Of a stretch of DNA of 64,000 bases, positions 4,121-52,126 are shown piece by piece (within the stretch, counting starts at the first letter, position 1; each line of letters starts with the position of its first letter). The translations under genes and the position numbers were made by a program. The DNA comes from a virus (taxonomy: Duplodnaviria > Heunggongvirae > Uroviricota > Caudoviricetes): IMG/VR virus record IMGVR_UViG_3300047546_003220; one strand, 5' to 3'. The notes under the pieces are model-generated. The model did no database searches, was not told where the DNA came from, and saw only the letters and a list, made by a program, of their open reading frames with translations.

Positions 4121-4545
4121 ACTTTCGTCCAATTTAATGAATAGACATCCACGTCGAGAGGTGTCCCATAATACGTTACATCAATATTGAAAAAGGACTT
4201 TAGGTCTTTGAATATTTCCCTTTTGGTTACAGCGGCCCAATTTCTATCATTTTCCATATTATTGAAATCAAAATAAAACTTCAGATTTGGTTTTTGAATT
4301 GAAAAGTTTTCATGCCCATAGTGAGAGGGTTTCTCCTTAATCTCAATCTTTACCAATAATTCACTGTACTTAGATTCGAAGTAATCAACTATCCTTGGAA
4401 TAATACTTTCAATATGACTTTTATATTCTTTAATGAACTCAACTCTACCTTCCGTTGGTAAGCTGTGAAACTTAACCACCCAATCTGGAGTATCAGGTTC
4501 CACTTTGAGAGCTTCCTTTAAAACCTTTCTTATGAGTTCTTTCAT
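4117..4545 (-). CDS. hypothetical protein carrying the shared N-terminal motif (MKELIRKVLKEALKVE)
   Basis: An ATG start at 4543-4545. The N-terminus is nearly identical in pattern to MRELIRNIIREQV of 9668..10609. Confidence 0.45.
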   Translation of the reverse strand: MKELIRKVLKEALKVEPDTPDWVVKFHSLPTEGRVEFIKEYKSHIESIIPRIVDYFESKYSELLVKIEIKEKPSHYGHENFSIQKPNLKFYFDFNNMENDRNWAAVTKREIFKDLKSFFNIDVTYYGTPLDVDVYSLNWTKV

Positions 4546-4574
4546 ATCTTATAAATACGAATGAAAATAAAAAA

Positions 4575-8386: not shown

Positions 8387-9136
8387 TTAGATTGTTTCTA
8401 CAATCGAAGCGGTTACGCCATCCCACTTCTTGATTTGAGTTTTGGGAACCCAAAACTCCATCTCACCAATCTCCTCAACACGCTTCAGGTACTCCTCACG
8501 GAAACGCTGAGCCTGAGATTTGTCGGTGATGTACTCCACACCCACATGTTTAGCACAAATCTTACCGAACCCAGTCAACATTGAAAACTCATCAGTCAAA
8601 GTCTTCAAACAACAAGTACAAACATCACCACGCTTGATAGTCAACTTACCTGTGAAAAGAACCGCCTTTGGAGACACAGCTTTAAGAGCTGTGATGTCGA
8701 TAAGGATTGGGTTGAACTTGAGACCATACTTCTCTTTGAGTTCGACGCCCTTCTTACGACCAAGTTTGATGGTTTCTCCGATTGTTGGCCAGTTCATACG
8801 AACTGTCTTTTCTTTGTCCTCCTCCTTTTGAATCTGAGCCACAGCGGCTGAGATTTGCTTTGAGGTAAGTGTACCCCACTTTTCGAATTTGGAAGCGATG
8901 TCCTTAACGAATGGGTTCTCACCCTTGTACTCGACGATACGCTTCACGTCCTCAGGAAGTTCGGCTTTGTTGATGGTCTTAACTTCAGAGTTAAGAGCCT
9001 TCTCGGTAGCCATGAGTTGCTTTGGGGTTAAACCTCCCCACTTCTTGAGAGCGTCTTTCATGTTGAGGATAAAACGGTTTTGACCTTGGTAGTTACGAAC
9101 TTTGTCTTGAACTGAAACTTGGGTTGTGGTAGTCAT
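8387..9136 (-). CDS. hypothetical protein with an internal duplication (…KKWGGLTPKQLMATEKAL… / …EKWGTLTSKQISAAVAQI…). The ATG start is at 9136; the track start at 9160 is TTG.
   Basis: 9158-9160 is the reverse complement of TTG. A -7 promoter box lies 22-29 nt upstream of the ATG at 9136. Confidence 0.45.
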   Translation of the reverse strand: MTTTTQVSVQDKVRNYQGQNRFILNMKDALKKWGGLTPKQLMATEKALNSEVKTINKAELPEDVKRIVEYKGENPFVKDIASKFEKWGTLTSKQISAAVAQIQKEEDKEKTVRMNWPTIGETIKLGRKKGVELKEKYGLKFNPILIDITALKAVSPKAVLFTGKLTIKRGDVCTCCLKTLTDEFSMLTGFGKICAKHVGVEYITDKSQAQRFREEYLKRVEEIGEMEFWVPKTQIKKWDGVTASIVETI

Positions 9137-9667: not shown

Positions 9668-10609
9668 TTATCCTTTGGTCATTTTGAAATTTCTTTCCTT
9701 GATTTGTTGAATCAAATTCGGTGATGCTGACCTATCAATCAAAATTGAACCCCCCACAAATTCCAAATTTCCTAAATCCTCAACACTAGATTTTCTTAGT
9801 CTTAGTTTTCCACCAACATATTTCAAGTCACCTAATGATTTTATATTTGGTGAAGTTATCACTAATTCATCACCAACGTACTCTAAGTCACCTAATGAAT
9901 TCAATTCTGTTAGGCCATCACCTAAAACACACTTACCCCAAACTTTGCGAAGTTTACCCAATGAATTGGTTTTTCCCGATTGTAATTTGAACTTACCTTT
10001 AACCTCAATTAAGGTATCAAGATTGTTGCAAACGCTAAGCGAACAATCTCCTTTTACAAATTCCAACCCACCCAAATAATCTAATTCCGCCCCCACCCAC
10101 AAATCACAAAAAACATTTTTTAGTCTTGATAAGTTATTGATACCACTAAAAGAAGGCCTTCCGTCAAACCACACTTTATCCCTGATGAGTACAATATTTC
10201 CACCAAGTTTACTGGGAATTGATTTCATATTCTCTGTTGCTAAAAATAATTTAGGGTCCTCATAAATCAAAAAAACTGAACCGCTGGAGTCTGACTGCAA
10301 ATCCAAAATATTTGAAATTTCTTCTAAATTCTTTCCAGCTACTTCTGATAAAATTGATATTATGTCCTCATCGGTATATCCAGCTAAATAAGTTCTGAGA
10401 TATGGGTCTTCTCTGTCTATAACCGCTTCTGCGGTATTTTTTTTATTAACCCACTCTATTTGGCCTGTTTCAATGTCTCTTCTTGCAAGAGTTATACCAC
10501 CCCCTACAGATTTAATTGTTAAACCTGATTCTTTAATGTAATTTAATAATTTACTCAAATATTTTTCAGAAACTTGTTCCCTTATTATGTTTCTTATCAA
10601 TTCTCTCAT
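9668..10609 (-). CDS. leucine-rich-repeat-like (BspA-type) protein with the shared N-terminal motif (MRELIRNIIREQVSE)
   Basis: The C-terminal half holds roughly 23-aa repeats (…SLGDLEYVGDELVITSPNIKSLGDLKYVGGKLRLRKSSVEDLGNLEFVGGSILID…). Confidence 0.4.
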   Translation of the reverse strand: MRELIRNIIREQVSEKYLSKLLNYIKESGLTIKSVGGGITLARRDIETGQIEWVNKKNTAEAVIDREDPYLRTYLAGYTDEDIISILSEVAGKNLEEISNILDLQSDSSGSVFLIYEDPKLFLATENMKSIPSKLGGNIVLIRDKVWFDGRPSFSGINNLSRLKNVFCDLWVGAELDYLGGLEFVKGDCSLSVCNNLDTLIEVKGKFKLQSGKTNSLGKLRKVWGKCVLGDGLTELNSLGDLEYVGDELVITSPNIKSLGDLKYVGGKLRLRKSSVEDLGNLEFVGGSILIDRSASPNLIQQIKERNFKMTKG

Positions 10610-10625
10610 CTAAAATAAATATAAA

Positions 10626-10668: not shown

Positions 10669-11235
10669 TTAGTTTTTCATTACGTACGGAGTTAATTCAG
10701 TCTTAACTTTCTCAAATTGTTCCTGAGTAATCATTCCCAAATCGAGAAGTTCTTTTTGTTCTTTGAGTTTAGCAAGGGCATTTTCTCGGTTCATACCTAA
10801 AGATTTCAATTCACCCACCGCAAAAGCCTCCTCAATATTAATTAGATAATTTGGACACATACCACAGAGTCCTTTACTAATAATATAAATTCTAAAACCA
10901 GCTCTTTTTGTTCCTTGAGCGTAAATTCTTTTAATGACGGTGTTGTTACCACTTACACTTGCTAAAGTCGGAGTTAATGGAGTTCCCGCCAATGCACCTG
11001 CAACACCTGAATAATCTTCAATGAAAGTAAAAGTTTTATTAACAGAAGGTCTGCCAATTTTCAAAGTATCACCGACCTTATATGTATGTCCATCCAAAGC
11101 AACATATTGGTCGAAATCCGCAGCTTCGAAAGCACCTTTGGTGAATGTTTTCATTTGCTCCGCGGTGATTGTTTTTTGACCATAAGATTGAATCGATGCA
11201 ATTAGGGCGATTGCGACCACAAGGATTTGTTTCAT
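10669..11235 (-). CDS. secreted protein with a C-terminal SHOCT-like domain
   Basis: Signal peptide MKQILVVAIALIASIQSYGQ. The C-terminus LKEQKELLDLGMITQEQFEKVKTEL matches the SHOCT pattern (L..LL..G.IT.EEF…K..L). Confidence 0.45.
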   Translation of the reverse strand: MKQILVVAIALIASIQSYGQKTITAEQMKTFTKGAFEAADFDQYVALDGHTYKVGDTLKIGRPSVNKTFTFIEDYSGVAGALAGTPLTPTLASVSGNNTVIKRIYAQGTKRAGFRIYIISKGLCGMCPNYLINIEEAFAVGELKSLGMNRENALAKLKEQKELLDLGMITQEQFEKVKTELTPYVMKN

Positions 11236-13833: not shown

Positions 13834-14042
13834 TCTTTTTTGTGTCTATAAAACCAAATAAGGTGAATAACAATAACGCACGAATTTACAACAATTGTTG
13901 GACCTGCAGAAATTCCAACACCATAAATAATCCAAAAACAAGCACCGATTGTATTAATCAGTCTTAAACGGAAAATGTTCTCAACTAAGAATGAACTTAG
14001 AATGAGAACAGTTCCAATGTATCCAAATATTTCCCAACTCAT
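13812..14042 (-). CDS. small 2-TM membrane protein
   Basis: Two hydrophobic helices (IGTVLILSSFLV…; FWIIYGVGISAGPTIVVNSCVIVIHLIWF) and a basic C-terminus; 76 aa. Confidence 0.35.
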   Translation of the reverse strand: MSWEIFGYIGTVLILSSFLVENIFRLRLINTIGACFWIIYGVGISAGPTIVVNSCVIVIHLIWFYRHKKEWNSKKK

Positions 14043-14494
14043 TTCGCGAATGCCTTATCTGCCCAAGTCTTAGCCCCAACCAAAGTCCACAAATTCATAT
14101 CACACATATCAGGGAAAGACTGTCTCATAGTTCCCACAGTGATTACCTTTAAAAAACCAAGGTCGATTGAATACCACTTACCACCTTTGGTAGTGTAAAC
14201 GTTCATCCACTGACCGTATTCGTTCTTAGCTTGAATGTTAACCAAAGAATTCTTACCATACCCACGGATTACGTCAACGGTTCCTTTGGTGTCGTGGATG
14301 TTGATGAACCCCGCCTTGCATTTGCCTGCAATACGGAATTCATATTCCTTGTTGATATCTTTCAGGTGGTTTGAAACTGAAACGTCGAGAGATTTACCTT
14401 TAACGTAAGTTCTGAATGAACCGTAAAAAACGTCAGAAGAATAGGCGTTGTTGGTGTTGATGTGAAGTGCGGGGATGGTGATGGTTTGGGTCAT
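14039..14494 (-). CDS. hypothetical beta-rich protein
   Basis: ATG at 14492-14494 and a -7 box 23-30 nt upstream. Confidence 0.4.
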   Translation of the reverse strand: MTQTITIPALHINTNNAYSSDVFYGSFRTYVKGKSLDVSVSNHLKDINKEYEFRIAGKCKAGFINIHDTKGTVDVIRGYGKNSLVNIQAKNEYGQWMNVYTTKGGKWYSIDLGFLKVITVGTMRQSFPDMCDMNLWTLVGAKTWADKAFAK

Positions 14495-17237: not shown

Positions 17238-17500
17238 TTTGAGTTCAAAAGTTGTTTTAATTTAATTTCAAGAAGTTCGATGTTGTCCTTATCCTTACGG
17301 TTCTTGTTAGGTTTCATTCGAATACAATCAATAATCTCACGGATATAATCCGCTTCAGATTGCTCAACAGGTTCGGGAGAACCTTTGAGAAGTTTGTCTT
17401 CATTTTCAACATCGTCCTTAGCATTTCTCTCGCCAAGTTTGTACGCCCCGTACACAAGCGCTCCGAAGAACGCATATCTTAGAATTTGTTTGGTGTTCAT
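17234..17500 (-). CDS. small membrane-anchored protein
   Basis: N-terminal TM segment ILRYAFFGALVYGAYKL. Confidence 0.35.
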   Translation of the reverse strand: MNTKQILRYAFFGALVYGAYKLGERNAKDDVENEDKLLKGSPEPVEQSEADYIREIIDCIRMKPNKNRKDKDNIELLEIKLKQLLNSK

Positions 17501-17778
17501 TTGGTTACCTCCGCTTCGATTTTAGATTTATTAACAAGATGGTCAGTTAGAGTGTACATATCAAGTTTAGTGGTAACGATTGAGTTAACCAAGTGCTTAT
17601 ATGGTATATGAACCAAAAAATCGGTTCCATTGAAAAATGTGAGGTCGTTTTTTGTCTCGATACAACCTTGTACGAGTTTCAAGAACAACTTAAATTGACT
17701 AGCATTTACAAAGGTCTCTTCCAAAAGAATTCCGAAAGTCTCGTGTTGAATTTTTACGTGATGGCTGTGTAGGTTCAT
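17497..17778 (-). CDS. hypothetical protein. The ATG start is at 17778 (MNLHSHHVKIQ); the track start at 17808 is TTG.
   Basis: A -7 box TATCTTTG lies 18-25 nt upstream. Confidence 0.35.
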   Translation of the reverse strand: MNLHSHHVKIQHETFGILLEETFVNASQFKLFLKLVQGCIETKNDLTFFNGTDFLVHIPYKHLVNSIVTTKLDMYTLTDHLVNKSKIEAEVTK

Positions 17779-17834: not shown

Positions 17835-18374
17835 TTAAATCTGTGGTGATATAGGTGTAACTACTTCTTTACCATCAGAAATAATTCTATAAGTGGTAAT
17901 TTCACCCAAATCAGGGAAACTTATCAGTTCGACTCTAATTCCCCATCTTCCCACTTGATTGTTGACTTCAGGTGTTACAATAGAAGTTAAATCCACCAAG
18001 TCCTCCCAAGTTGTACCTTCGACCATATCACGAATAATACCTTGAGTTGTATCAACCAATACGTCATTTGCATGCATTACCCCCAAGAGAAATTTTTCAA
18101 CATCGTAGATATGATATCTAACAATACTTGATAACACAACACTTTTTTCATCCAAGGAAGTAACAGTTTGTGGTTTCAAATTTACCGTTTGGGTAATAAC
18201 AGGGGTTACCCAAATCTTATCAAAGAAAGGGAGTTTAAAATTTAAACCTGGATAAACTACTTTCTTGAATTTACCAAAGGATAAATGCACGCCTTGTTCC
18301 CATTGGTCAACTATTTTGAATGGAAGGATATCGTGAATGAAAGTAACAACGACTTCTATTAATTTATCAAACAT
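17835..18374 (-). CDS. SPFH/band-7 (prohibitin/HflC-like) domain protein. The ATG start is at 18374; the track start at 18395 is GTG.
   Basis: …QGVHLSFGKFKKVVYPGLNFKLPFFDKIWVTPVITQTVNL…VLSSIVRYHIYDVEKF… follows an SPFH-domain pattern. Confidence 0.5.
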   Translation of the reverse strand: MFDKLIEVVVTFIHDILPFKIVDQWEQGVHLSFGKFKKVVYPGLNFKLPFFDKIWVTPVITQTVNLKPQTVTSLDEKSVVLSSIVRYHIYDVEKFLLGVMHANDVLVDTTQGIIRDMVEGTTWEDLVDLTSIVTPEVNNQVGRWGIRVELISFPDLGEITTYRIISDGKEVVTPISPQI

Positions 18375-20339: not shown

Positions 20340-20930
20340 TTAGAATAAATCAGGGTCTTTTTTGTCTGTAGTTTCTATTGGAACATTAGTTGGAACGGTC
20401 CCATCAAGTGGTACCGTATTTGTAGCATCATTGGCTACGGTGCCAGTGTTTGTTGAATTGTTGGTCAATGTAGTTGGTTCTGTTGAGGAATATACAGCGT
20501 CTGCCCCTTGGAAGTCGTCAACCCCCATCACATCTGTGTCGACCACTGTCGGATTGAGATATTCATTTTTATAACTACTCCAAGCCTTATTAGTTCTCGG
20601 ACCAAATCTTCCATAACCTCTTCCTTTATTCACTTTACCATCGGCGTATCCTGTAGCCCAACCCGCTTTGTTGATGTCTAACCAATCCTGAAATTTTTTA
20701 ACTCCTTCAGAATTTGCTAGTTCTGTTGGGATTTGTATACTAGGTCCCGAGCCACCACCTGAACCACTACCTGAACCACCACCTGAACCACCACCTGAAC
20801 CACCGAACCCTGTCGGGTCAGTAATATTAATTTGTTCCGAAATGAATAAATTTTCCGAATCAGTTTTTCTTATATCGTAGACCATAAATTTCTTCATAGT
20901 CTGAATTTCATTGATAATTTCTCTTTTCAT
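20340..20930 (-). CDS. protein with a Gly/Ser linker and a peptidoglycan-binding-like (PG_binding_1-like) domain
   Basis: A (GGSGGGSGGGSGSGSGGGSG) linker, then VKKFQDWLDINKAG…YADGKVNKGRGYGRFGPRTNKAW, which resembles a PG-binding repeat; the tail is Thr/Asn-rich. Confidence 0.4.
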   Translation of the reverse strand: MKREIINEIQTMKKFMVYDIRKTDSENLFISEQINITDPTGFGGSGGGSGGGSGSGSGGGSGPSIQIPTELANSEGVKKFQDWLDINKAGWATGYADGKVNKGRGYGRFGPRTNKAWSSYKNEYLNPTVVDTDVMGVDDFQGADAVYSSTEPTTLTNNSTNTGTVANDATNTVPLDGTVPTNVPIETTDKKDPDLF

Positions 20931-20931: not shown

Positions 20932-21732
20932 TTACGCTTTTAAAACCCATTCCGTTTTATTTTTCAAACCTCCTGGTTCATCAGGTCCTGACGCAACGCA
21001 CTCACACTTTGCCGACCAAGTTTTTCCACCTTTTTTCAAAAGAACGTTAGCTTCATTTGGGTAACCCGCGATAGCACTACCATTCAAGAAAAAACTAAGT
21101 TCACCACCTTTATAAGGTACTTTACCATGTTGTTTATCTCCTTCACCATAAACCTGATATCCAGTTACGCCCTCTAAACATTTGAAAAAGTTTGCCACGA
21201 CTGTTGTTTGGGCATTTGGTGTAGGTGTTGGTGTTGGAGTAACTGCGGTTTTTGCCACATCTTGTTTATCCTTATCAGCCTCTAACCAATTCATTAATGT
21301 TCTACGAGTTTCTTTACCTGTAGAACCATATCTCGACTGATATAGACTTTTCAAATCATCATAAAGGCTATCACCTTCATCGTCTTCATACATCTCCATA
21401 AATCGTTTAAGACAAGGTCTTACTACAGCCTCATCCGAAACTTTACAATACTTACCCTTATATTTCTCTAAGATTTTTTTTATTTCATTGAGGTCAGATT
21501 CTGATGTCCATCCCGCACCTCCAGTTACAATGCCAGCTAGTTTACCTGTGAAACCCGCAGTTCCATCCATTAAATCTACGACACGTTCAACGTCGTCCAT
21601 CAAATCAGTATCTGTAAATGGGTCTTGAGCCGTTCCTGTTCCCTCTTTGATTAAAGATTTTGTTTCAACTAAAGATTTTTTGATTAAGTTGATTAGTTGA
21701 GACTCTGTTAGTCTTATTTTTCTTTTATCCAT
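20932..21732 (-). CDS. hypothetical protein with the shared N-terminal motif (MDKRKIRLTESQLINLIKKSLVE) and a TPTPTPTP linker
   Basis: ORF with an ATG start at 21730-21732. Confidence 0.4.
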   Translation of the reverse strand: MDKRKIRLTESQLINLIKKSLVETKSLIKEGTGTAQDPFTDTDLMDDVERVVDLMDGTAGFTGKLAGIVTGGAGWTSESDLNEIKKILEKYKGKYCKVSDEAVVRPCLKRFMEMYEDDEGDSLYDDLKSLYQSRYGSTGKETRRTLMNWLEADKDKQDVAKTAVTPTPTPTPNAQTTVVANFFKCLEGVTGYQVYGEGDKQHGKVPYKGGELSFFLNGSAIAGYPNEANVLLKKGGKTWSAKCECVASGPDEPGGLKNKTEWVLKA

Positions 21733-21796
21733 GAGTTCTTTATTTTATAAATATATTTCAAAATTGATTTTATTTTCTTATAAATATACTGCAAAC

Positions 21797-24720: not shown

Positions 24721-26136
24721 TTATTGTTCGACTTCAACTTTTGAGGAATTAATTTTTTCTTTGATTTTTTCAACCATTTTCTTTCCCACTTCCTTCATAA
24801 ACTTTATATAGGGCACATCGGGTTTGTCGGGTGAATATCTATATGGGTCTTCGGATGGTCTTGTTTTTCTACCTAAATAATTGAGACCTGAAATATTTGT
24901 AATACACTTATGTCCTCCAGATTGAGATTGAATAAAGTCCCACATGTTAATTCCAACTTTATCTAACACATTTTTTTCCTCTTCAGTTAACTCAGAAAAA
25001 GGTTTGTCCATAATTGGTTTCAATTTGGATATAATTTCTTCTCCTCCCTCAATCATTTGAAATTTACCCCCAAATAGTGCATCAAAATCCTTAAATGTAA
25101 ATCCAACACTTTCAGGTCCAACAGAAATTTCACTTATCCATTTCAAAGTTGAAAGAGGTATTACTCTTTTTTTCAGTGCAGGTTCATATTCCAATAAAAC
25201 TTCTTGTGCTATCTCCCCCAAATTAACTCCCTTAAGTTGTCTTTCTTTTTTAAAAGGGTTACAAGATGCCTGTAATAGTCCCATTGGCCACAATAAAACT
25301 AAAAAGTCTGCATCAGGGTGAACTCTGAATGGAGTATATCTATCATAGGAACCACTTTTCATACTTCCAGCTCCATATTGGAAAATTATTCCGTCTTGAT
25401 AAACTCTTTTTGGATAATTTTTCATTTGTTCGTGATAATCTTCTGACCTTTTTTGTAGAACATCAACTGTTTCTGCATTGGTAGCTTTCATCCACGATTT
25501 AATGTTATTCAATATTGAAAGTAATGATGGTTCTGAATTCATTACAAGGTCTTCCATGAAACCTTTTTTATTCTTGAAGGCTAATATTAGTTTGTTAATA
25601 ACTAATCCAAGTAACATCTTGTTTTTAGACAGTGTCTTATCTTTATCAAGTCTAAAAATGTAATTAACTACATCTTCAGGATTCAAACCTTGCTTCACAA
25701 AGTCAGCCGAATCTACAGTGCTAATTAACGTGATGTCCTGAGAGGGAAATAAATCTTTTGGTGATACTATTTGTGAAATTGTCTCTACGTTGGAACGAGC
25801 TTGTCTGAATGATTTTGATGCTTCTTTTTCCGCACCAACTTGCTTATCATGGTGGTCAGTGTGTATTTTAAACATTGGTTTACCATGTGCAAAATCCACT
25901 AAAACTGGCATTGTATCACCTTCCGCATCATTTTTTTTAATAGCGAATTCTTTGTCCCCGTATTGAATGACGTGAGCTCCGACAACTTCTATACCATTAT
26001 CCTCAAGATATTTTTTCATGGCAATTGCGGTGGTCACACCATCTAAATCTTGGTGAAAATAAATTTCGGCTTTGGGATATCTCTTCCTCAAAGCCGATAT
26101 ATCTCTGAGACCTGACTCAACAATTACTCTTTTCAT
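24721..26136 (-). CDS. DHH/DHHA1-family phosphoesterase (NrnA/RecJ-like catalytic core with an inserted region)
   Basis: N-terminal FHQDLDGVTTAIAM (DHH motif I), …FKIHTDHHDKQ (DHH motif III) and C-terminal …QSGGHKCIT… (the DHHA1 GGH motif). Confidence 0.6.
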   Translation of the reverse strand: MKRVIVESGLRDISALRKRYPKAEIYFHQDLDGVTTAIAMKKYLEDNGIEVVGAHVIQYGDKEFAIKKNDAEGDTMPVLVDFAHGKPMFKIHTDHHDKQVGAEKEASKSFRQARSNVETISQIVSPKDLFPSQDITLISTVDSADFVKQGLNPEDVVNYIFRLDKDKTLSKNKMLLGLVINKLILAFKNKKGFMEDLVMNSEPSLLSILNNIKSWMKATNAETVDVLQKRSEDYHEQMKNYPKRVYQDGIIFQYGAGSMKSGSYDRYTPFRVHPDADFLVLLWPMGLLQASCNPFKKERQLKGVNLGEIAQEVLLEYEPALKKRVIPLSTLKWISEISVGPESVGFTFKDFDALFGGKFQMIEGGEEIISKLKPIMDKPFSELTEEEKNVLDKVGINMWDFIQSQSGGHKCITNISGLNYLGRKTRPSEDPYRYSPDKPDVPYIKFMKEVGKKMVEKIKEKINSSKVEVEQ

Positions 26137-26450
26137 TACTTCAATTCAATCGAAAAAATTTCAAATTTTTTCTTTGTTTTAGGCTCATATCCGAACATTC
26201 TCTCACCGTCTTTACCCATTTCAAACATGAACGTACCCTTTGGTAAAGCTGTTTTAACCTTCATAGATTGTTCACGACCTGTTTCAGTTCTAACAACTAA
26301 AATTTTGTTCCCCTCAGAGTCCATTTTTATTTCCGCTTCTGCATTAGCACCTGGTGTTACAATTGATATTTTTTTGTCTTTTTGTTCGCGGATTATTCTC
26401 TTAACAATTCTATTTAAATCCGATTCAGTTAATTTGATAATTTTTGCCAT
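26136..26450 (-). CDS. hypothetical protein with the shared N-terminal motif (MAKIIKLTESDLNRIVKRIIREQ)
   Basis: ORF with an ATG start at 26448-26450. Confidence 0.4.
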   Translation of the reverse strand: MAKIIKLTESDLNRIVKRIIREQKDKKISIVTPGANAEAEIKMDSEGNKILVVRTETGREQSMKVKTALPKGTFMFEMGKDGERMFGYEPKTKKKFEIFSIELK

Positions 26451-26821: not shown

Positions 26822-26833
26822 AAATTATAAATA

Positions 26834-28066
26834 TTATATTCCTGGTATTGGATTCAATCTTCCCAATAACATACTTTTGAGGAATCCAGCTAATGGGTCT
26901 CCGTCAGATGACCCTGAAGATGAAACAGGTGTACTTACTTGAGGCTCTGAAGTTTGTTGTTGAGGTGCAGATGAAGTTGATGTTTGGGGTTGTTCCCTGT
27001 TGAATTTTACTATCTCACCATACTTCTTCTCTTGTTCACCTTTTCTATCATACTTACCAAACTCGTCGTCGAAGTTTTCCAAGGCTTGTGGAGTCTGATT
27101 ATATTGTTCAATTTTTTTCATCATTTGAGCTTCTCCCATTTGAGTTGATAGTTCCTCAGGTCCAACAAAATTTCCCACTCCAATATAGTCTAAGAAACCC
27201 AACCACCATTTTGTCTGTCCCATCAAAATTTTGACTCTTCTACCCTCTGGACTTCTGAATAATCTTGGAATGCCACCAAAGAAAACTTGACTTAACATTC
27301 CAGGTTTAGATAAAGTTGCCACATCAAATATTTTGGTATTTTTCACAGCGCTTATTAAATTTTCAACATCAGCGGCTTTAGCCGTTCCTCTAGCAAATTT
27401 ACCTCCCAAAGTGGTTGCCAAACCTTTTACGTTCACACTTTTCTTTCCCGCGTTGGCTAGAAGTTTCAAATAGTCCGTCATCATATTTTTTAAACCATTA
27501 AATGGTCCCAACGGTAAAGAATCTATCACACCAATAACATTGTCCCCTGTCTTCCCTCCAAGTTTTTGTATCAATTTTCCAAGCGCGTTTGGTGCTTTTG
27601 CAAAATCGTCCACTAATTTAGCTGCAGAAAGATATTGTTTACTACCAGGAGCTGCGGTTTTCATTATTTTCAAAGCCTTATCCAAGGCTTTAGTTGAACT
27701 TGTACCTAATTTGGCTGCTCCCATTACAGACTTACCTACGAAGTCTCCAAACATTGGAATCGCACTTACCAAACTTAATATACCGTAAAGGGTATCTCCT
27801 TGAGAGAAATAGGAAATGGCGTTGATTGAGTCGGTAATTGGCGTAGGGTCAACTATTCCTAAAAAATCCATGGCAGTATTATACCACTTAGCTTCTTTGA
27901 TGTTTTTCTTCTGAGGGTACAGATGGTTCAAAACATCCATCACCACTTTTTGTTCCTCAACACTAAGTTTTTCCCATTTGTTTTTGATAGAATCATATGG
28001 GCTCTCATTTACTATTTGGTTCTGAATGAGTTCTAATTGAGTTTGGGAAATTATGTATTCAGCCAT
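26834..28066 (-). CDS. hypothetical 410-aa protein with a Ser/Pro/Thr-rich C-terminus and the shared N-terminal motif (MAEYIISQTQLELIQNQIVNE)
   Basis: ORF with an ATG at 28064-28066. Confidence 0.4.
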   Translation of the reverse strand: MAEYIISQTQLELIQNQIVNESPYDSIKNKWEKLSVEEQKVVMDVLNHLYPQKKNIKEAKWYNTAMDFLGIVDPTPITDSINAISYFSQGDTLYGILSLVSAIPMFGDFVGKSVMGAAKLGTSSTKALDKALKIMKTAAPGSKQYLSAAKLVDDFAKAPNALGKLIQKLGGKTGDNVIGVIDSLPLGPFNGLKNMMTDYLKLLANAGKKSVNVKGLATTLGGKFARGTAKAADVENLISAVKNTKIFDVATLSKPGMLSQVFFGGIPRLFRSPEGRRVKILMGQTKWWLGFLDYIGVGNFVGPEELSTQMGEAQMMKKIEQYNQTPQALENFDDEFGKYDRKGEQEKKYGEIVKFNREQPQTSTSSAPQQQTSEPQVSTPVSSSGSSDGDPLAGFLKSMLLGRLNPIPGI

Positions 28067-28107
28067 CGAGGGAATTTTCTTTTATAAATATCCAAACAAA
28101 TAAAAAA

Positions 28108-37031: not shown

Positions 37032-39608
37032 TTAGATTCCCAAACTTTTTTCTAAAATCTCTAATTTCTTCTCATTATAATCTAAGATTTCACTTTGTTC
37101 TTTGATTGCTTCCAAACACGCAGCAATCAACGAGTCATATTTTACAACTAACACATTTTCGTCATCTTCTTTACCTGCCACCAATTCAGGGAAGGCAACT
37201 TGTAATTCTTGGGCAATGAAACCAACATCAACTAAACCATCATTTGTTTTTTCGTTGTTCCAGTTGTAATTTACCCCTCTTATCTTGGATATTTTATCTA
37301 TAGCGTTAGTGATAGGTCGGATATTTGTTTTATATCTTATATCTGACGGACCCGTAGGTCCCGTAGGACCTGGAGCTCCTTGTGCACCTTGAGGTCCTGT
37401 AGAACCACCAGGACCAGCAGGTCCTTGTGAACCTTGTGAGCCTTGGGCTCCTTGGTTACCAGGAGGTCCTCCAACACCTTGAGCACCCTGACCACCTTGG
37501 GCTCCTTGAGCCCCTTGTCCACCTGTTGGTCCTTGTGCTCCTTGAGGTCCTTTTGGTCCTTGTGTACCTTGGGCACCTTGTCCACCACCAGGTCCTTGAG
37601 CTCCAACACTACCTTGGGCTCCTTGTCCTCCTTGAGCACCTTGCCCGCCACCAGGTCCTGTGGCTCCTTGAGCGCCTTGTCCTCCCTGAGAACCTTGTGA
37701 ACCTTGACCACCCTGAGACCCTTGAGCACCCTGAGCTCCTTGAGCACCTTGACCTCCTTGAGCACCCTGTCCACCTTGTGACCCTTGAGCTCCTTGAGCA
37801 CCCTGTCCACCTTGTGCTCCTTGAGCACCCTGTCCACCTTGTGCACCTTGGGGCCCTGTTTGACCCTGAGCACCTTGGGCTCCTTGCGCCCCTTGTCCAC
37901 CTTGTGAACCCTGATTACCCGTTGCACCTTGAGCTCCTTGACCACCTTGTGCTCCCTGTCCACCCTGTGAACCTTGAGCACCTTGTCCTCCTTGAGACCC
38001 TTGAGCTCCCTGAGCACCTTGACCTCCTTGTGCTCCTTGTCCTCCTTTGGCGCCTTGTGAACCTTGAGCACCTTGAGCACCTTGTCCTCCTTGAGAACCT
38101 TGAGCACCTTGTCCTCCTTGGCTACCCTGAGCCCCTTGAGCGCCTTGTCCACCTTGTGAGCCTTGGTTACCCACGGGACCTTGTGAACCTTGAGCTCCTT
38201 GAGCACCTTGTCCACCTTGTGAACCTTGGGCTCCTTGAGCTCCTTGACCTCCTTGCGAACCTTGAGCTCCTTGTCCTCCTTGTGAACCTTGACCTCCTTG
38301 AGCGCCCTGTCCACCCTGAGCTCCTTGTGCTCCTTGTCCTCCTTGTGAACCTTGAGCTCCTTGAGCACCTTGACCTCCTTGAGCTCCTTGAGCACCTTGT
38401 CCTCCTTGTGAACCTTGAGCTCCTTGAGCACCTTGACCTCCTTGAGCTCCTTGAGCACCTTGTCCTCCTTGAGAACCTTGTGAACCAGTGTTACCTTGTG
38501 AACCAACAGCTCCTTGAGAACCTTGACCACCCTGAGAACCTTGGGCACCTTGTGCTCCCTGTCCACCTTGCGCTCCTTGAGCACCTTGTCCTCCTTGGCT
38601 ACCCTGTGACCCCGTATTTCCTTGGGAACCAACTGCACCTTGTGAACCTTGTCCTCCTTGGGAACCCGTTGCACCTTGTGCACCCTGTCCTCCTTGAGCA
38701 CCTTGAGCTCCTTGTCCACCTTGACTTCCTTGTGACCCAGTATTACCTTGAGAACCTTGTCCACCTTGGGCACCTTGACCACCTTGGGAACCAGTTGCAC
38801 CTTGTGCTCCTTGTCCTCCTTGAGCACCTTGAGCTCCTTGTCCCCCTTGGGAACCTTGGGACCCCGTATTTCCTTGAGAACCTTGTCCTCCTTGAGCACC
38901 TTGACCACCTTGGGAACCAGTTGCACCTTGCGCTCCTTGTAACCCTTGAGCCCCTTGAGCACCTTGTCCACCTTGGCTACCCTGTGAACCTGTATTACCC
39001 TGAGAACCTTGTCCTCCTTGAGAACCCTGACCACCTTGTGAGCCAGTAGCACCTTGTGCTCCCTGACCCCCTTGAGCACCTTGGGCTCCTTGTCCACCTT
39101 GGCTACCCTGTGAACCTGTATTACCTTGCGCCCCTTGACCTCCTTGAGAACCTTGACCTCCTTGAGAACCTTGCGCTCCCTGACCACCTTGTGCACCCTG
39201 GCCTCCTGTTGAACCTTGAGCACCCACCGCTCCTTGTGAACCTGTTGCACCCGAGGCTCCTGTAGGTCCAACTGAACCTTGAGCACCTGTGGGACCTTGA
39301 GCACCCGTTGGTCCGACTGAGCCTTGAGCACCTGTAGGACCTTGAGCTCCTTGTGGTTCGGGATTTCCCAACCAACCGACTGAAGTTATCAATGGGTCTA
39401 AAGCATTGTTAACTAACTTGGTAGTCAACTTCAAATCCGCGTCACTAACCCTAAATGTTGGAGCGGCTGAATTCCATGTAAGATAGGTTGTTGCACCTCT
39501 TTTCCATTGGAGAGTACCACTAGATACAACAAGTAGAGTTGATGTACTTCCAGTGTCCAAAAAATCTATCTGTCCACTACCTGGGGTTATTATAATATCT
39601 TCAGCCAT
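37032..39608 (-). CDS. collagen-like (Gly-X-Y) fibre protein 1 with a C-terminal endosialidase-chaperone (Peptidase_S74) autoproteolytic domain
   Basis: N-terminal globular domain ([13 protein letters not shown]…), about 670 aa of GAQ/GSQ/GGQ triplets, then …[32 protein letters not shown]…VGFIAQELQ…, the S74 intramolecular chaperone signature (S-D-x-R-x-K-x-N-I … Y/F-x-W). Confidence 0.8.
37347..39355. repeat. Gly-X-Y triplet tandem repeat tract of fibre 1, with a super-repeat of about 126 bp
   Basis: Continuous (GNN)n coding with recurring 42-residue units ([42 protein letters not shown]). Confidence 0.8.
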
Positions 39609-42315
39609 TTATTTTTTCTTTCAATAAATTTATTCTCTTCAAAATATTGTCGATTCTGACTTGTTGTTCTTTTATTGCTCCGATTCCAAATGCAACCATT
39701 GAATCATAGTCAACAGACTTAAATCCTTCATCATCAGTCCAAACGACTTCGGGAACAACTTTTTCTAAGTCTTGAGCAATGAATCCGACAGAACCTCCCG
39801 TAAAGGCATATGGTGTAGCAATATTTGGGTCTTCAACGATTTTTTTATGGGGTAACCAATCAAATCTAACTCCCTGAATTAATTTTATGGTATCCATAAC
39901 ATCCTGTAAAGGTTTGATGTTATCCTTTAATCTTTGGTCTGATGGTGGACCAGTTGGACCTGTAGGGCCTTGTGACCCTTGAGCTCCCTGACCCCCTTGT
40001 GACCCTTGACCACCTGTGGCGCCTTGTGCTCCTGTTGAGCCTTGTGCTCCTGTTGGACCGTTGTTAGGTCCTGGTGCTCCACCTGGACCTTGAGCACCCT
40101 GAGCTCCTGTATTTGCACCTTGAGCTCCTTGAGCACCTTGGTTACCTGGTAATCCTTGAGCACCTTGTGCTCCAGTGTTAGCACCTTGAGCACCTTGGGC
40201 TCCTTGAGCTCCTTGAGCACCAACGTTACCTTGGGCTCCTGTGTTTGCACCTTGGGCTCCTTGTGAACCTTGAGCACCTGTTCTTCCTGTTGCACCTTGG
40301 GCTCCTGTACTTGCTCCTTGTGCACCTTGGGCTCCTTGAGCTCCTTGAGCACCTATGTTTCCTTGAGCTCCTGTAGGGGTTCCTTGTGCACCTTGGGCTC
40401 CTTGCGCACCCGTTGAACCAACAGCTCCTTGAGCTCCTTGAGGTCCTCCTTGAGCTCCTGTTGAACCTTGGGCTCCCTGAGCTCCAACCGCACCTTGTGA
40501 ACCTTGGCTAGCTCCTTGAGCTCCTTGTGAACCTTGAGCACCTTGAGCTCCTGTATTACCTTGAGCACCTGTACTAGCTCCTTGAGCACCTTGAGCTCCT
40601 GTGTTACCTTGAGCACCTGTAGCACCTTGGGCTCCTGTGCTAGCACCTTGGGCTCCTTGAGAACCTTGAGCTCCCTGTGCTCCTGTCGCGCCTTGAGCAC
40701 CTGTACTTGCTCCCTGAGCTCCTTGAGCTCCTGTGCTACCTTGAGCACCTGTAGCACCTTGGGCTCCCGTACTCGCTCCCTGTGCACCTTGACCACCTTG
40801 TGAACCTTGAGCTCCTGTTGCTCCTTGTGCTCCTGTACTTGCTCCCTGAGCTCCTTGTGCACCTTGTGCTCCCGTATTACCTGTGGCACCTTGAGCACCT
40901 GTGGTTCCACCCTGTGCTCCTTGTGCACCTTGTGCTCCCGTATTACCTGTCGCCCCTTGAGCACCTGTGGTTCCACCCTGTGCTCCTGTAGCACCTTGTG
41001 CACCTGTGTTACCTGTAGCACCTTGAGCACCTGTAGTTCCTCCCTGAGCTCCTGTAGCACCTTGGGCACCTGTGTTACCTGTAGCACCTTGAGCACCTGT
41101 AGTTCCACCTTGAGCTCCTTGTGCACCTTGACCTCCTTGTGCACCTTGACCTCCTTGGGCGCCTGTACTTGCTCCCTGAGCTCCTTGTGCTCCTTGAGCA
41201 CCTGTATTTCCTGTGGCTCCTTGTGCTCCCGTTGTGCCTCCTTGCGCTCCTTGAGCTCCCTGTCCTCCTTGGGCTCCTTGACCTCCCTGAGCACCTGTAC
41301 TTGCTCCCTGAGCTCCTTGCGCCCCTTGAGCGCCTGTATTCCCTGTGGCTCCTTGTGCTCCCGTTGTACCACCCTGAGCTCCTTGTGCTCCTTGACCACC
41401 TTGAGCTCCAGTTGAACCTTGAGCACCTGTAGTTCCTCCTTGAGCACCCTGAGCTCCTTGAGCACCTGTATTCCCTGTGGCTCCTTGTGCTCCTGTTGGT
41501 CCACCTTGAGCTCCTTGAGCTCCCTGTCCTCCTTGGGCTCCTGTACTACCTTGTGCTCCCGTAGTTCCTCCCTGAGCACCCTGAGCTCCTTGAGCACCTG
41601 TATTACCTGTAGCACCTTGGGCTCCTGTAGTACCACCTTGAGCTCCTTGGGCTCCTTGACCACCTTGGGCACCTGTACTACCCTGTGCACCTGTACTTGC
41701 TCCTTGGGCTCCTTGAGAACCTTGAGCGCCTGTGTTACCTGTAGCACCTTGTGCTCCTGTCGTACCACCTTGAGCGCCTTGGGCTCCTTGACCACCCTGA
41801 GCTCCTGTACTACCCTGTGCACCTGTACTTGCTCCTTGGGCTCCTTGAGCACCAGTGTTACCAGTGGCTCCCTGTGAACCTTTTGCCCCTTGAGCACCTT
41901 GTCCACCTTTTGCTCCTTGCGAACCTTGTCCACCTTGAGCACCTTGTCCTCCCTGAGCTCCTTGACCACCTTGTGCTCCCTGACCTCCCTGTGCTCCTTG
42001 AGCTCCCTGACCTCCCTGTGCTCCTTGAGCACCTGCGATACCCGCTGTTGGTCCTGCCCATGTACCATCAGAGTTAACCATCTTAACACCACCAACATAT
42101 AAACCTTTGCCTGTACCTGTAACAGAACTTCCACTTACAGTTACTGTTGCTCCAAGTGTTGCAATATTGGAGTTAGTCGTAGATGAAACAACAACTACCC
42201 CGTCAGCTCCTACGTTGAGTTGGATTCTTCCACCACTCGCATCTTCAAATACAGTATGTGGAGCGGTGTTACCACCAGCATTTCCATTAGGATATATTAT
42301 AACGTTAGTGGGCAT
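39601..42315 (-). CDS. collagen-like fibre protein 2 with a C-terminal Peptidase_S74 chaperone domain
   Basis: N-terminus [15 protein letters not shown]…; a GXY tract with a periodic one-residue interruption (GGTT or GAST) every 22 residues; C-terminus …[32 protein letters not shown]…VGFIAQDLE…. Confidence 0.8.
39943..42040. repeat. Gly-X-Y tract of fibre 2 with a super-repeat of about 66 bp (22-residue unit [22 protein letters not shown])
   Basis: Regular repeats visible in both nucleotide and protein sequence. Confidence 0.8.
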
Positions 42316-45184
42316 TTTTCAATTTTAATTCTAAATCTTTTATTTGATTTTCAATATCATCAATAAATAGTTGTTGTTCCTTTATACCCTCAACTAATAC
42401 TGCATTCAATTTAACATATTCAATATAATAGTAACCTTGGTGGTTGACTTTTACTACCGTCGGATAAAACTCTTTTACGTTTTGAGCTATCAAACCAACT
42501 GAGTGAATCTTTTTGAGTCCATTAATATCTCTATATTTTCCGTCAGTTAATTTTTCATTCCAATCGAATTCAACAGTATCAATCTGAAGAATTTTATTTA
42601 AAGAGTCCTCAAGAGTTACAATATTTCTTTTAAGTCTCCTATCCGAACAGAAGTAGTTGTAAATATAGTATCCACCACTTCCTGTATATCCAGCACAAGA
42701 ACTACCTTGGTATCTCACGTTCCTTGCACCTGCGGTCCACTGACTACAATCTGAAGCGGTATATAACTGTACGTCAGCACATCCACTCCATGAAACTGTT
42801 GTATAATAGTAGAACGAACCACAACTGTATGGATAATTACATAATGAATATTGAGTACAGTTTGACCATACCAAGTTGGCATTACAAGTTCCACTTGGTC
42901 CTGTTGGACCTGTTGGACCTTGAGCCCCTTGAGCACCTGTATTTCCTGTAGCACCTTGTGTTGAACCAACGTATCCTGTACCACCTTTCGCACCTTGAGC
43001 ACCTTGTGGTCCTGGTGAACCTCCAGGTCCTTGTGAACCTGTCGCACCCGTTGAACCTTGAGCTCCTGGATGACCTGTATTTCCTGCTGGTCCTGTAGGT
43101 CCTGTTGCACCTACAGCTCCTTGTGCTCCTGGGTGTCCTGTTGCACCCTGAGCTCCTTGAGAACCCCCTGAGTTTGTAGCACCTTGCGCTCCTGGATGTC
43201 CCGTGGCTCCTTGTGACCCTTGAGAACCTCCTGTTCCTGTATTTCCTTGTGCACCTGTGTTTCCGACAGCTCCCTGTGAACCTTGATTACCTCCAGCCCC
43301 TGTATTTCCTTGAGCACCTGTATTACCTGTGGCACCTTGGACCCCTTGTGGCCCTGTAATGTTTGCGGCTCCTGTCGGTCCTTTAGCTCCCTGTGAACCT
43401 GTAGCACCCTGAGAACCTGCAGCGTTTGGTGCTCCTTGAGCACCTGTATTACCTGTGGCCCCTTGAGCTCCTGTTGAACCTCCGCCTCCTGTGGCGCCTT
43501 GTGCTCCCGTATTACCCACCGCACCTTGGGAACCAGTATTTCCTGCAGCTCCTCCACCACCCTGTGCTCCTGTATTACCTGTTGCTCCTTGAGCTCCTGT
43601 TGAACCAGCAGCACCTCCCGCACCTTGTGCTCCTGTGTGACCAACAGCACCTTGAGAACCAGTATTTCCGCCTGCTCCTCCTGCACCTTGTGCTCCTGTA
43701 TGCCCTGTGTTTCCTTGAGCACCTGCAGAACCTCCTCCACCTGTAGCACCTTGTGCTCCTGTGTGTCCTACAGCCCCTATGGAACCTTGAGCCCCTGTGG
43801 GACCTCCCGCGCCTGTTGGACCTACTGCTCCTGTGTTTCCCGTTGCACCTTGTGAACCTGTCGCTCCTACAGCTCCTGTTGGACCTACTGACCCTGTTGG
43901 ACCGACAGCACCTTGTGAGCCAGTTGGACCTGTTGCACCTGTTGGTCCAACTGCACCTGTTGGTCCTGTTGCTCCTTGAGAACCAGTCGGACCTGTTGCA
44001 CCTGTTGGCCCCACATTACCTTGAGCTCCAGTGGGTCCTTGTGCTCCTGTATTACCTGTAGCACCTTGTGCTCCTGTATTACCTGTGGCACCAATTGAAC
44101 CCTGAGCTCCCGTTGGACCAGTATCACCTGTTGGACCTACGTTACCTTGTGCACCCGTTGGACCTTGAGCACCTGTATTACCTATAGCTCCTTGTGCACC
44201 TGTATGTCCTTGTGCACCTGTCGAACCTTGGGCTCCTGTAGGACCTACAGCTCCTGTTGGACCTACGTTACCTTGTGCACCCGTTGGACCTTGTGCTCCT
44301 GTTGGACCAACCGCACCTGTCGGACCAACCGCACCTTGTGCTCCTGTTGAGCCTTGAGCACCTGTCGGACCAACTGCTCCTGTTGGACCTACGTTACCCT
44401 GTGCACCCGTTGGACCCTGAGCACCTGTTGGACCTACCGAACCTGTCGGACCAACCGCACCTTGTGCTCCTGTTGAGCCTTGAGCACCTGTTGGACCTAC
44501 TGCTCCTGTTGGACCTACGTTACCTTGTGCTCCTGTCGGACCTTGAGCACCTGTATTACCTATGGCTCCTTGTGCTCCTGTGTGTCCTTGAGCACCTGTA
44601 GAACCTTGGGCTCCTGTCGGACCAACCGCTCCCGTTGGACCTACGTTACCTTGAGCTCCTGTTGGACCTTGTGCTCCTGTGTTACCTGTGGCACCTTGAG
44701 CACCTGTATTTCCTGTAGCACCTTGAGCTCCTGTTGGACCTGTGTCTCCTGTAGCTCCTTGAGCTCCTGTATCACCTGTGGCACCTTGAGCACCTGTAGA
44801 ACCTTGAGCACCTGTGTTTGCACCTTGAGCACCTGTATTACCTGTAGCTCCTTGTGAACCTGTGGCACCTTGAGCACCCGTTGGACCCGTGGCTCCTTGC
44901 GCTCCAGCAATTCCTGTGTCGGGACCAATCCAATTGGCAGTACCATCGATTACCTGTACTCCTCCAATTGTAAAATTGTTTCTAACGTTCAACGATACCA
45001 CAGATATAATCGCATTAGAAATTTGAACCGATACGGTATTGACTTGAGTAGGAGAACTAATATTGATTGTTGAGCCTGATACGACTTTCCAACTACTCGT
45101 ACTGTTGTTTACCCAGTTAATATACGGTATACGGTCGGGTTGCGGAGCTAACGTATTACTTGGAACTATTAAGATATCGCCCAT
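42305..45184 (-). CDS. collagen-like fibre protein 3 with a Cys-rich module and a C-terminal Peptidase_S74 chaperone domain
   Basis: N-terminus [15 protein letters not shown]…; GPT/GAQ/GNV triplets; a Cys-rich segment (…[30 protein letters not shown]…[15 protein letters not shown]…SSCAGYTG…); then …[31 protein letters not shown]…[11 protein letters not shown]…. Confidence 0.8.
42916..44920. repeat. Gly-X-Y tract of fibre 3 ([28 protein letters not shown]… super-repeats)
   Basis: A (GNN)n tract with recurring 42-residue units. Confidence 0.75.
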
Positions 45185-45283
45185 GAATGTTTTTTTCTGT
45201 ATCTATAAATACAATTAACTATGGATTTGTATTCATTTTTATTTTTATAATTTATATGATTGTTCAAATAATAATTACATCGA

Positions 45284-51029: not shown

Positions 51030-51073
51030 CTACCGTGAATTTATTAATAAATATATTGTTGAGACAAAAATAA

Positions 51074-51949: not shown

Positions 51950-52126
51950 TTACTTATAACAATTTTTGTACGGACGACAAGAAGCCTTTTGTGTAAATCC
52001 CATCTTGGAACATGGGGTTGATTTACAATAAGATTGACTATACTTACGAGGTTTCTTAAATTTCTTTTGTTCTTTCTCGTCAAGATATTGATAAAGAACT
52101 CTCTTAATAATTTGCTCGTTAATCAT
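51950..52126 (-). CDS. small basic Cys-containing protein (58 aa; C-x4-C…C-x5-C)
   Basis: An ATG ORF (MINEQIIKRVLYQYLDEKEQKKFKKPRKYSQSYCKSTPCSKMGFTQKASCRPYKNCYK) not present in the track. Confidence 0.25.
   Translation of the reverse strand: MINEQIIKRVLYQYLDEKEQKKFKKPRKYSQSYCKSTPCSKMGFTQKASCRPYKNCYK

Follow-up and report, generated by a model that had tools for sequence, protein, structure and literature searches.

Why should phage proteins with unrelated bodies begin with the same short peptide? The question arises at positions 26386..26450 (minus strand) of a 64,000-nucleotide stretch of tailed-phage DNA, IMG/VR record IMGVR_UViG_3300047546_003220 (hereafter the window, meaning that whole stretch), where the first ~22 codons of p104, an open reading frame (ORF) of 104 amino acids (26136..26450), encode the N-terminus MAKIIKLTESDLNRIVKRIIREQ. 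An initial annotation had proposed that ten or more window proteins share a short amphipathic N-terminal motif that may target them to the virion and be trimmed there. The shared motif is confirmed as real and is larger than first described. For this peptide, termed the leader below, the best explanation, at a probability of roughly one half, is a capsid-targeting or propeptide signal like that of phage T4, and its carriers are best explained as accessory proteins of large Bacteroidota phages with T4-type heads.

The leader motif and its statistical support

The full module of ~22 amino acids reads M-x-K-[IV]-[IV]-[KR]-L-T-E-S-D-L-x-R-[IL]-V-K-R-[VI]-I-x-E-[QS], and the consensus of 213 unique copies in public proteins is K-I-I-[RK]-L-T-E-S-D-L-x-R-I-V-K-R-V-I-x-E-Q. 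Among these copies the Leu, Thr and Glu of L-T-E are kept in 206, 207 and 213 respectively, and the Ile and Glu of I-x-E in 176 and 195, the x position being the most variable; the exposed polar residues of the leader (T, E, S, D, K, R, Q) are conserved as strongly as the hydrophobic ones. Three subtypes are distinguished: the full form; an IIITE form, MKIIITE[NSE]Q; and a short form, M[KR]ELIRxxI[KR]E, of 8-13 residues with Met in place of the Leu after TESD, e.g. MRELIRNIIREQ, that ends in hydrophobic-x-Glu (h-x-E). The literal pattern by which the motif was originally described, (I/L)xx(I/L)(I/L)(K/R)E(Q/E/A), fits just two window proteins and gives way to this longer motif.

When a 12-column position-specific scoring matrix (PSSM) trained solely on p104 orthologs of other contigs was applied to the window, 7 of its 11 top matches lay at or before residue 15, a zone that holds 6.6% of positions. 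Six window proteins were observed, as against a mean of 0.6-0.9 after shuffling of the N-terminal 26 residues (p<0.0005) and ~0.1 for interior windows. A broader external PSSM, built from the 213 unique copies, was judged against a matched interior-position null for every truncation of the profile; ungapped PSSMs with empirical nulls were chosen, a local 21-column hidden Markov model (HMM, run in HMMER) being too insensitive for half-motifs. The broader PSSM gives floor or near-floor p values (6e-5 to 1.2e-4) to the genes at 4117..4545, 9668..10609, 49710..51029, 3734..4120, 20932..21732, 26136..26450 and 20340..20930, and adds an eighth carrier at 51950..52126 (p 3.6e-4). Four to six further proteins are marginal, among them genes 58240, 9229, 26834 and 37..1608. 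Genes 55538, 3097 and 3417 receive no support from this PSSM; they are similar, however, to the IIITE subtype, which has been validated elsewhere.

That proteins of unrelated body share one N-terminus is borne out by the positional enrichment, by the shuffle and interior controls and by the dissimilarity of the bodies, which in the window are unrelated save for two weak pairs; the shuffle and interior nulls also exclude a generic low-complexity feature. The grouping of N-termini that differ in detail stands as well: an LRR-like (leucine-rich repeat) body, that of the p313 family, is found with each of the three subtypes, or with no leader, and the subtypes are interchangeable.

Distribution of the leader and diversity of its carriers

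A leader-only profile run against 1.84 billion cluster representatives finds 8,410 proteins at E<=1e-3, a count of protein clusters at the 50% identity level, and 102 at E<=1e-10. The best matches score 57-85 bits, and of the top 150 cluster representatives ~135 match from residue 1 onward; position 7 is taken by the Leu of L-T-E in 247 of the 286 N-terminal copies. The leader is virus-specific, i.e. found almost only on viral DNA: IMG/VR holds at least 600 pattern matches, and 185,579 bacterial and archaeal species genomes hold only 7 leader loci, all in metagenome-assembled genomes (MAGs) or single-amplified genomes. The 79 leader-anchored loci have 1,684 ORFs, of which 167 bear the leader at the N-terminus and 6 have an interior match. 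In 80 loci anchored on capsid genes, and so not chosen for the leader, its density is 4.9%, with at least one carrier in 45 of the 80.

The 166 carrier bodies fall into 112 families, with a median body of 146 amino acids and a range up to 500 or more; recognisable bodies (PG_binding_1, LRR-like, MORN, GNAT) are rare. Among the p104 orthologs the first ~23 residues are near-invariant, and the remainder diverges or gives way to unrelated bodies. On contigs L001-L080 the gene directly upstream of the homolog of p471, the gene that follows p104 in the window, bears the same leader on at least 5-6 bodies (beta-rich, PG_binding_1-like …AIQxFLNxxG…, and others), and this locus is one of cassette-like replacement behind a fixed leader.

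Searches of annotated libraries returned little. No Pfam family covers the leader; the PHROGs give only weak matches (E 0.003-0.03) to the first 25-35 positions of PHROGs 6420, 27427 and 1664, which are of unknown function; a PDB sequence search with the leader gives chance matches to eL34 only; Foldseek of the p104 body gives nothing at E<=0.001; and tblastn, with either the consensus leader or two-leader proteins as query, finds no match among GenBank phages, so that no cultured phage with the leader was found. The motif strings were not found in the literature searched, and the literature searched on huge phages and moraphages makes no mention of N-terminal tags. It is well supported that the leader is a widespread feature undescribed in these libraries and papers.

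Variants occur in other settings. A subtype of gut and other habitats, RLTE[SG]DLH[RK]I[IV]KESVxR[VI]LxE, is present on a Prevotella sp. CAG:1092 scaffold (L092), in a fecal MAG (L091, GC 0.22) and in UBA3650 (L087 and L089), and shows that the tag is not confined to phages of freshwater; the probable source is phage contigs that were binned into MAGs. Some public proteins (among P0044-P0060, P0057, P0052 and P0073) have 2-3 leader copies, each at the head of a further body segment, and in some a leader forms the C-terminal end; such proteins could be gene fusions or polyproteins. An h-x-E-[NS] sequence lies upstream of some internal copies and is not universal. Leader-only micro-ORFs, e.g. 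P0249 and P0242 (29-31 amino acids), are also seen, and ORFs of this kind sit inside contigs of more than 150 kb; they are possibly decoys, regulators or pseudogenes.

Peptide-level selection and predicted structure

Third codon positions vary among leaders (identity 0.48 versus 0.77 for positions 1 and 2) and the Leu and Ser residues switch between six-fold codon families, so that selection acts on the peptide and not on the DNA. The peptide is predicted to consist of a strand-like stretch (MxK-h-h-[KR]-L) followed by an N-capped helix (T-E-S-D-L-x-R-I-V-K-R-V-I-x-E-Q) that is amphipathic (hydrophobic moment, muH, 0.6-0.72) and has a net charge of ~0 to +1. The AlphaFold2 (AF2) model of p104 has a helix at residues 9-24, a segment at 26-36 with a predicted local distance difference test score (pLDDT) below 50, and a beta body at 38-100; that of p313 has a confident solenoid at 160-300 with residues 1-21 unpacked at pLDDT 32-43. 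In p104 the leader helix is thus set off from the body by a low-confidence segment, presumably a flexible linker.

Two other kinds of N-terminal peptide were considered and rejected. A Sec, Tat or lipoprotein signal peptide does not fit a consensus that is charged throughout (K, R, E or D every 2-4 residues) and has no hydrophobic h-region, and genuine Bacteroidota signal peptides in the window, e.g. those of genes 2530, 4601 and 5800, look unlike the leader. A leader of a ribosomally synthesized and post-translationally modified peptide (RiPP) precursor does not fit bodies that are long and have folded domains, and no RiPP enzymes were seen in the neighbourhoods.

A promoter class shared with structural genes

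An unbiased k-mer comparison finds TATTTAT upstream of 110 of 149 leader genes and 294 of 1,143 others (odds ratio 8, p 4e-30), and across comparisons the enrichment has odds ratios of 7-8 with p from 1e-27 to 4e-30. Distances from the start of the box to the ATG are 11-15 or 21-25 nt; a T-rich stretch lies upstream of the box, often behind a hairpin, and an A-rich stretch downstream. Counted by operon, TATTTAT units hold 86% of leader genes versus 37% of other genes, and units headed by a host-type box, TAnnTTTG, hold 2% of leader genes versus 15% of other genes.

The genes that share the box with the leader carriers are informative. On contig L121, TATTTAT lies before the prohead protease gene, before a scaffold-like gene with that of the major capsid protein (MCP) directly downstream, and before a tail/baseplate-like gene, and the L121 leader carrier p153 is translationally coupled to the tail/baseplate-like operon. 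The cultured T4-like Flavobacterium phage vB_FspM_immuto has the box before its annotated terminase, portal, sheath, tail-completion, hub, tape-measure and structural genes. Within the window the box stands 11-28 nt before the ATG of nearly all leader genes and of the tail-fibre operon, and TATTTAT occurs there 37 times in total versus 21 expected. Since it stands before virion genes in L121, the window and immuto alike, TATTTAT is read as the promoter of the structural genes, presumably the late class; a candidate for the factor that reads it is the phage sigma factor encoded at 61425..62222.

The host-type box corresponds to the Bacteroidetes -7 consensus TAnnTTTG (PMC6847099). It is found upstream of several window genes and points to a Bacteroidota host for this large uncultivated phage. 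The genes so preceded include 8387..9136, 10669..11235, 14039..14494, 17497..17778, 17835..18374, 48604..49359 and 63318..63794, presumably early genes.

Head genes and candidate cleavage sites

Queries with T4 gp23 and gp21 find homologs on leader contigs, and on L121 Pfam identifies Peptidase_S77 (L121:18141-18857; E 2e-22) and Gp23 (E 4e-71). Between the S77 protease and the MCP, L121 encodes an extremely acidic (D/E/M-rich) scaffold-like protein of 519 amino acids (L121:16218-17777, minus strand). The nearest GenBank relatives of the MCP are in the uncultured 484-kb phage LR756508, phage immuto and Microcystis phage Mel-JY01. The gene content of the window resembles that of the aquatic "moraphages" (PMC12619734), for which Flavobacteriia hosts are predicted and whose T4-like structural core has a prohead core protease among its genes; moraphages also encode a sigma factor and, in some cases, DnaJ/DnaK.

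In T4, gp21 removes capsid targeting sequence (CTS) peptides of 10-20 amino acids and cleaves Alt at ITE-6 and LTE-619 (PMC5694885); T4 IPII and IPIII begin MKTYQEFIAE followed by A, the cut falling after IAE. The most invariant tripeptide of the leader is L-T-E (I-T-E in the IIITE subtype) and its end is [VI]-I-x-E, equal at the sequence level to ITE-6, LTE-619 and IAE of T4. The resemblance of the hydrophobic-x-Glu ending to T4-type prohead protease sites, as the initial annotation had it, is matched by verified gp21 sites, and its virion-targeting or propeptide reading is supported in part, by indirect evidence.

The scaffold-like protein of L121 has at residue 37 a segment, EINQLVKESLSEQ, that resembles the leader helix, a match that is suggestive only (p 1.3e-4 per position, 0.065 when corrected for length), and its N-terminus holds AIAE, comparable to the T4 IAE sites; the leader might mimic such a scaffold segment. 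The match of a leader-like segment in the L121 MCP is not significant.

A DenV-like pyrimidine-dimer glycosylase gene at 63318..63794 (minus strand; Pfam Pyr_excise by a precomputed match), 65% identical to a gene on contig L157, is the sole non-leader gene that joins the window to contigs like L157, whose other end enters a T4-type head module. Synteny by way of L157 shows one gene in common with the window, and comparison with LR745206 and LR756502 likewise gave no link to the head module. Look-ups of the window's edge proteins returned short contigs only, and PHROG annotation of its conserved proteins gave no head-module link.

Function of the leader

A T4-like capsid-targeting or propeptide role is best supported because promoter class, head type and cleavage-site logic favor it together. 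The phage TATTTAT promoter would drive transcription of the leader genes together with that of the genes for virion structure, and the leader would dock nascent cargo onto the prohead scaffolding core, as the T4 CTS does. The S77 prohead protease would then cut the leader off behind the Glu of L-T-E (residue 9), that of [VI]-I-x-E (residue 22) or both, and the mature cargo would remain in the head and be co-injected with the DNA. A wider proposal, offered tentatively and with less confidence than the targeting role itself, is that in the T4-type Bacteroidota phages of freshwater, marine and gut habitats one 22-residue tag may load hundreds of accessory proteins per lineage into the prohead, where S77 would free them; 5-10% of coding capacity would then be a co-injected effector arsenal, and the tag a handle both for cataloguing effectors and for packaging foreign proteins.

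Several observations weigh against the capsid-targeting assignment. Beyond M-K and the terminal h-x-E the leader has no homology to the T4 CTS, MKTYQEFIAE, and h-x-E arises readily in amphipathic helices of K, E, I and L. A shared-gene search and a tiling graph gave no link between the window and the head-module contigs; no head genes of its own were seen for the window, and an S77 protease in its genome is predicted on the strength of the leader system common to it and those contigs and of the core genes of moraphages. The TATTTAT class is not exclusive to virion components, as 37% of non-leader genes are in its units, and phage immuto has the promoter box and lacks the canonical leader. With 5-10% of ORFs carrying the leader, the range of cargo would greatly exceed that of T4. 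Internal and C-terminal copies in multi-unit proteins elsewhere are awkward for a pure N-terminal signal, and leader-only ORFs of 29-50 amino acids occur within long contigs; these copies, the leader-only ORFs and the number of carriers fit a general late docking tag at least as well.

Such a tag, unlikely on balance and yet the rival to be taken most seriously, would hold late accessory proteins, by docking or oligomerisation, to a different common partner (tail or baseplate, capsid exterior, an assembly chaperone or an unknown phage-built structure), with no proteolytic removal and no internal packaging. It accommodates a leader found at N-terminal, internal and C-terminal positions; exposed polar residues that are as conserved as hydrophobic ones are what a specific binding epitope would typically show, translational coupling ties the L121 carrier to a tail/baseplate-like operon, and the late promoter class fits equally well. 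It leaves unexplained the rigid distance from Met1, the exact LTE and IxE match to gp21 sites and the short 8-13-residue variants ending in h-x-E, and no candidate receptor has been identified for it. A good deal less likely is a generic N-terminal cap or self-association helix of an expanded paralogous family, kept by descent with no targeting role, e.g. a dimerisation element that stabilises small proteins. Tandem carrier arrays (window 3097-4545 and 20340-21732; L083 and L138), multi-unit fusions and the amphipathicity of the helix (muH 0.6-0.72) are in keeping with such an origin. The spread over 112 unrelated body families that include known domains is not, nor is the occurrence of the same LRR-like body with three subtypes or none, the extreme conservation of the leader relative to fast-evolving bodies, or its unpacked position in the AF2 models.

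The remaining readings lose ground to evidence already given. Routing to the cell envelope at lysis or infection, by non-classical export or a holin-dependent signal, is improbable: PG_binding_1 bodies without a signal peptide, including variants at the p104 locus, and the late class of lysis genes speak for it, but the leader is charged and lacks a hydrophobic core, nothing ties most of the bodies (LRR, MORN, GNAT, ORFans) to the envelope, a share of 5-10% of genes exceeds what lysis would need, and ejection from the virion accounts equally well for PG-binding cargo. More doubtful still is half of a ribbon-helix-helix-like nucleic-acid-binding element (strand and helix A) that binds phage DNA. 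The strand-helix pattern with basic residues recalls it, and very weak matches over the leader to Omega repressor (E 0.19) and to a PHROG 'DNA binding protein' (E 0.024) were seen; every database match is, however, non-significant, helix B is missing, AF2 gives one helix and then a low-confidence segment, and the helix net charge is ~0 to +1. Hardly any weight is left for a compositional artefact of AT-rich N-termini, where I, K and L are indeed enriched, or for a DNA- or RNA-level element such as a translation enhancer or recombination patch: both are refuted by the shuffle and interior controls, by the codon analysis (third position 0.48 versus 0.77, Leu/Ser codon switching) and by matches of 57-85 bits in a library of 1.8 billion proteins.

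Comparison with known targeting systems

The internal proteins of T4 are diverse and have the CTS alone in common (PMC3012670). The leader resembles the T4 CTS (of IPI, IPII, IPIII and Alt, with gp21 as the S77 protease) in being a short N-terminal peptide that is the only part common to diverse, fast-evolving proteins and in its hydrophobic-x-Glu. Contigs of the leader phages also encode S77, an acidic scaffold and a gp23-type MCP, and the leader genes share a promoter class with head genes, which suggests co-expression. The two differ in that the T4 CTS has 10 amino acids and the leader ~22 with a conserved helix; T4 has ~5 cargo proteins and the leader hundreds to thousands of cargo families, on 5-10% of ORFs; and the leader, unlike the CTS, has internal and C-terminal copies and leader-only ORFs. 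With no sequence similarity to the T4 CTS, the leader is best regarded as its analogue and not as a homologue.

The phiKZ-like giant phages have many paralogous and diverse inner-head proteins with conserved N-termini that are cut after Glu (PMC5694885). Their system (phiKZ gp175, SPN3US gp245) uses an S80 protease and S/A/G-x-E sites, whereas the leader contigs have S77; their propeptides, on head and ejection proteins, are family-specific and 80-160 amino acids long, whereas the leader is one universal 22-residue tag. Encapsulation peptides of bacterial microcompartments and the cargo-loading peptides of encapsulins likewise place a short amphipathic helix and a linker on unrelated cargo, at either terminus; they are weakly conserved and target a cellular shell. 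The leader, unlike these, is strongly conserved and virus-specific, and no microcompartment or encapsulin shell genes were seen here.

A second recurrent N-terminus, likewise shared by many unrelated ORFs, was found in the related huge phages LR756502 and LR745206. No LTESDL leader lies near the p471 homolog in L082 (LR756502.1 72483-114051 rc) or L081 (LR745206.1 85871-127592 rc); these phages have M[KR][YH][IL]Kx[YF]xxFxE, e.g. MKYLKIFEDFVE and MKHLESYKIFES, a pattern that was defined after the data were seen and that in L082 fits 13 of 64 ORFs versus 2 interior matches. It ends in h-F-E and looks like T4 MKTYQEFIAE, and its sequence differs from that of the LTESDL leader. Lineage-specific N-terminal tags may be general in huge phages.

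Leader genes and other content of the window

The window has ~35% GC and most of its genes lie on the minus strand; its leader segments and TATTTAT boxes are collected in Table 1. The stop and start codons of p123, p104 and p471 overlap at 26450 and 26136. p142 is the first gene of a four-gene leader operon that runs from 4545 to 3097, and p196 stands in tandem with p266 behind one TATTTAT box for both. The LRR matches of p439 in Pfam are under the gathering threshold, the orthologs of p410 start MAEIIITERQLxLIK…, and the start codon of p523 is ambiguous, its ORF running on to 1680.

Table 1. Leader-encoding segments and TATTTAT boxes of the window
Feature	Position	Strand	Details
Full leader, archetype, p104 residues 1-23	26382..26450	-	MAKIIKLTESDLNRIVKRIIREQ; PSSM 60 bits
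Full leader of p266 (20932..21732)	21661..21732	-	MDKRKIRLTESQLINLIKKSLVET; HMM 16 bits, independent E-value 4.7e-4; PSSM 33 bits, floor p
IIITE-subtype leader of p128 (3734..4120)	4055..4120	-	MIYIITEEQNRRLVKQIIKYLD; PSSM 12.7-15.9 bits, floor p
Short (helix-only) leader of p142 (4117..4545)	4507..4545	-	MKELIRKVLKEAL; floor p
Short leader of p313 (9668..10609), LRR-like repeat body	10571..10609	-	MRELIRNIIREQV; floor p
Short leader of p439 (49710..51029), LRR body	50985..51029	-	MKFTSILRQVILEQS; floor p
Short leader of p196 (20340..20930), newly added carrier	20901..20930	-	MKREIINEIQ; raw p 1.2e-4
Short leader of p58 (51950..52126), newly added carrier	52094..52126	-	MINEQIIKRVL; raw p 3.6e-4; own TATTTAT box
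Weak IIITE-type leader of p410 (26834..28066)	28001..28066	-	MAEYIISQTQLELIQNQIVNES; marginal, corrected p 0.04; own box
Marginal leader of p523 (37..1608), MORN-repeat body	1558..1608	-	MGMELRSLIWKLLREQV; corrected p 0.08
Doubtful leader of p555 (55538..57205)	57149..57205	-	MGKFEKHIDSLITKILNEE; no PSSM support, corrected p 0.15; TATTTAT box at -22
p107 and p102, small ORFs of the p142 operon	3097..3725	-	MRYIITENR…, MKYVISENR…; PSSM not significant; IIITE-like
TATTTAT box, 12 nt upstream of p123	26827..26833	-	drives the overlapping p123-p104-p471 operon
TATTTAT box of the p266/p196 leader operon	21747..21753	-	
TATTTAT box of p313	10615..10621	-	hairpin and T-run before the box
TATTTAT box of the p142 operon	4551..4557	-	hairpin and T-run before the box
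TATTTAT box of p439	51047..51053	-	
TATTTAT box of p58	52131..52137	-	
TATTTAT box of p410	28084..28090	-	
TATTTAT box of p555	57221..57227	-	
TATTTAT box of the collagen-like tail-fibre operon (45184 to 37032)	45205..45211	-	connects the box with structural genes inside the window

A megablast of the window finds no match among GenBank phages. p471 (24721..26136, 471 amino acids) has 463 relatives in IMG/VR, on contigs up to 183 kb, and among GenBank phages matches only the uncultured huge phages LR745206, LR756502, LR756501 and LR756503 (634-735 kb). Domain searches identify collagen-like tail fibres with a Peptidase_S74 chaperone domain, a sigma-70-family factor, a UvrC-like nuclease and a TonB-dependent-receptor-like protein, and DnaJ-like and Trx/Grx-like proteins are recognised by sequence. 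The tail-fibre-like genes are three consecutive collagen-repeat genes of ~900 amino acids each at 37032..45184 (minus strand), at least one with the Peptidase_S74 domain; their GC content is 46-52% versus 33-35% elsewhere, which explains the many long spurious ORFs in other frames of the region. At 4601..8277 (minus strand) a lipoprotein-like gene (400 amino acids) adjoins the TonB-dependent-receptor-like gene (825 amino acids; CarboxypepD_reg, Plug and OMP beta-barrel). Both products carry Bacteroidota-type signal peptides, and this SusC/SusD-like pair may be an auxiliary or superinfection-related module.

Significance of the leader

Whatever its function, a 22-residue virus-specific peptide present in more than 8,000 clusters with no curated family is a substantial unannotated feature. 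The TATTTAT box provides a sequence marker for structural-class, presumably late, genes in these phages, and the TAnnTTTG boxes back a Bacteroidota host independently. If the tag is a capsid-loading signal, metagenomic sequence alone would tell which of the "dark" proteins of large environmental and gut Bacteroidota phages enter the host with the DNA, and thereby likely identify first-strike anti-defence and takeover effectors. The T4 CTS principle would then grow from ~5 proteins to thousands of families, lineage-specific loading tags would be a general feature of large phages, and the leader would provide a new portable peptide for the packaging of foreign proteins.

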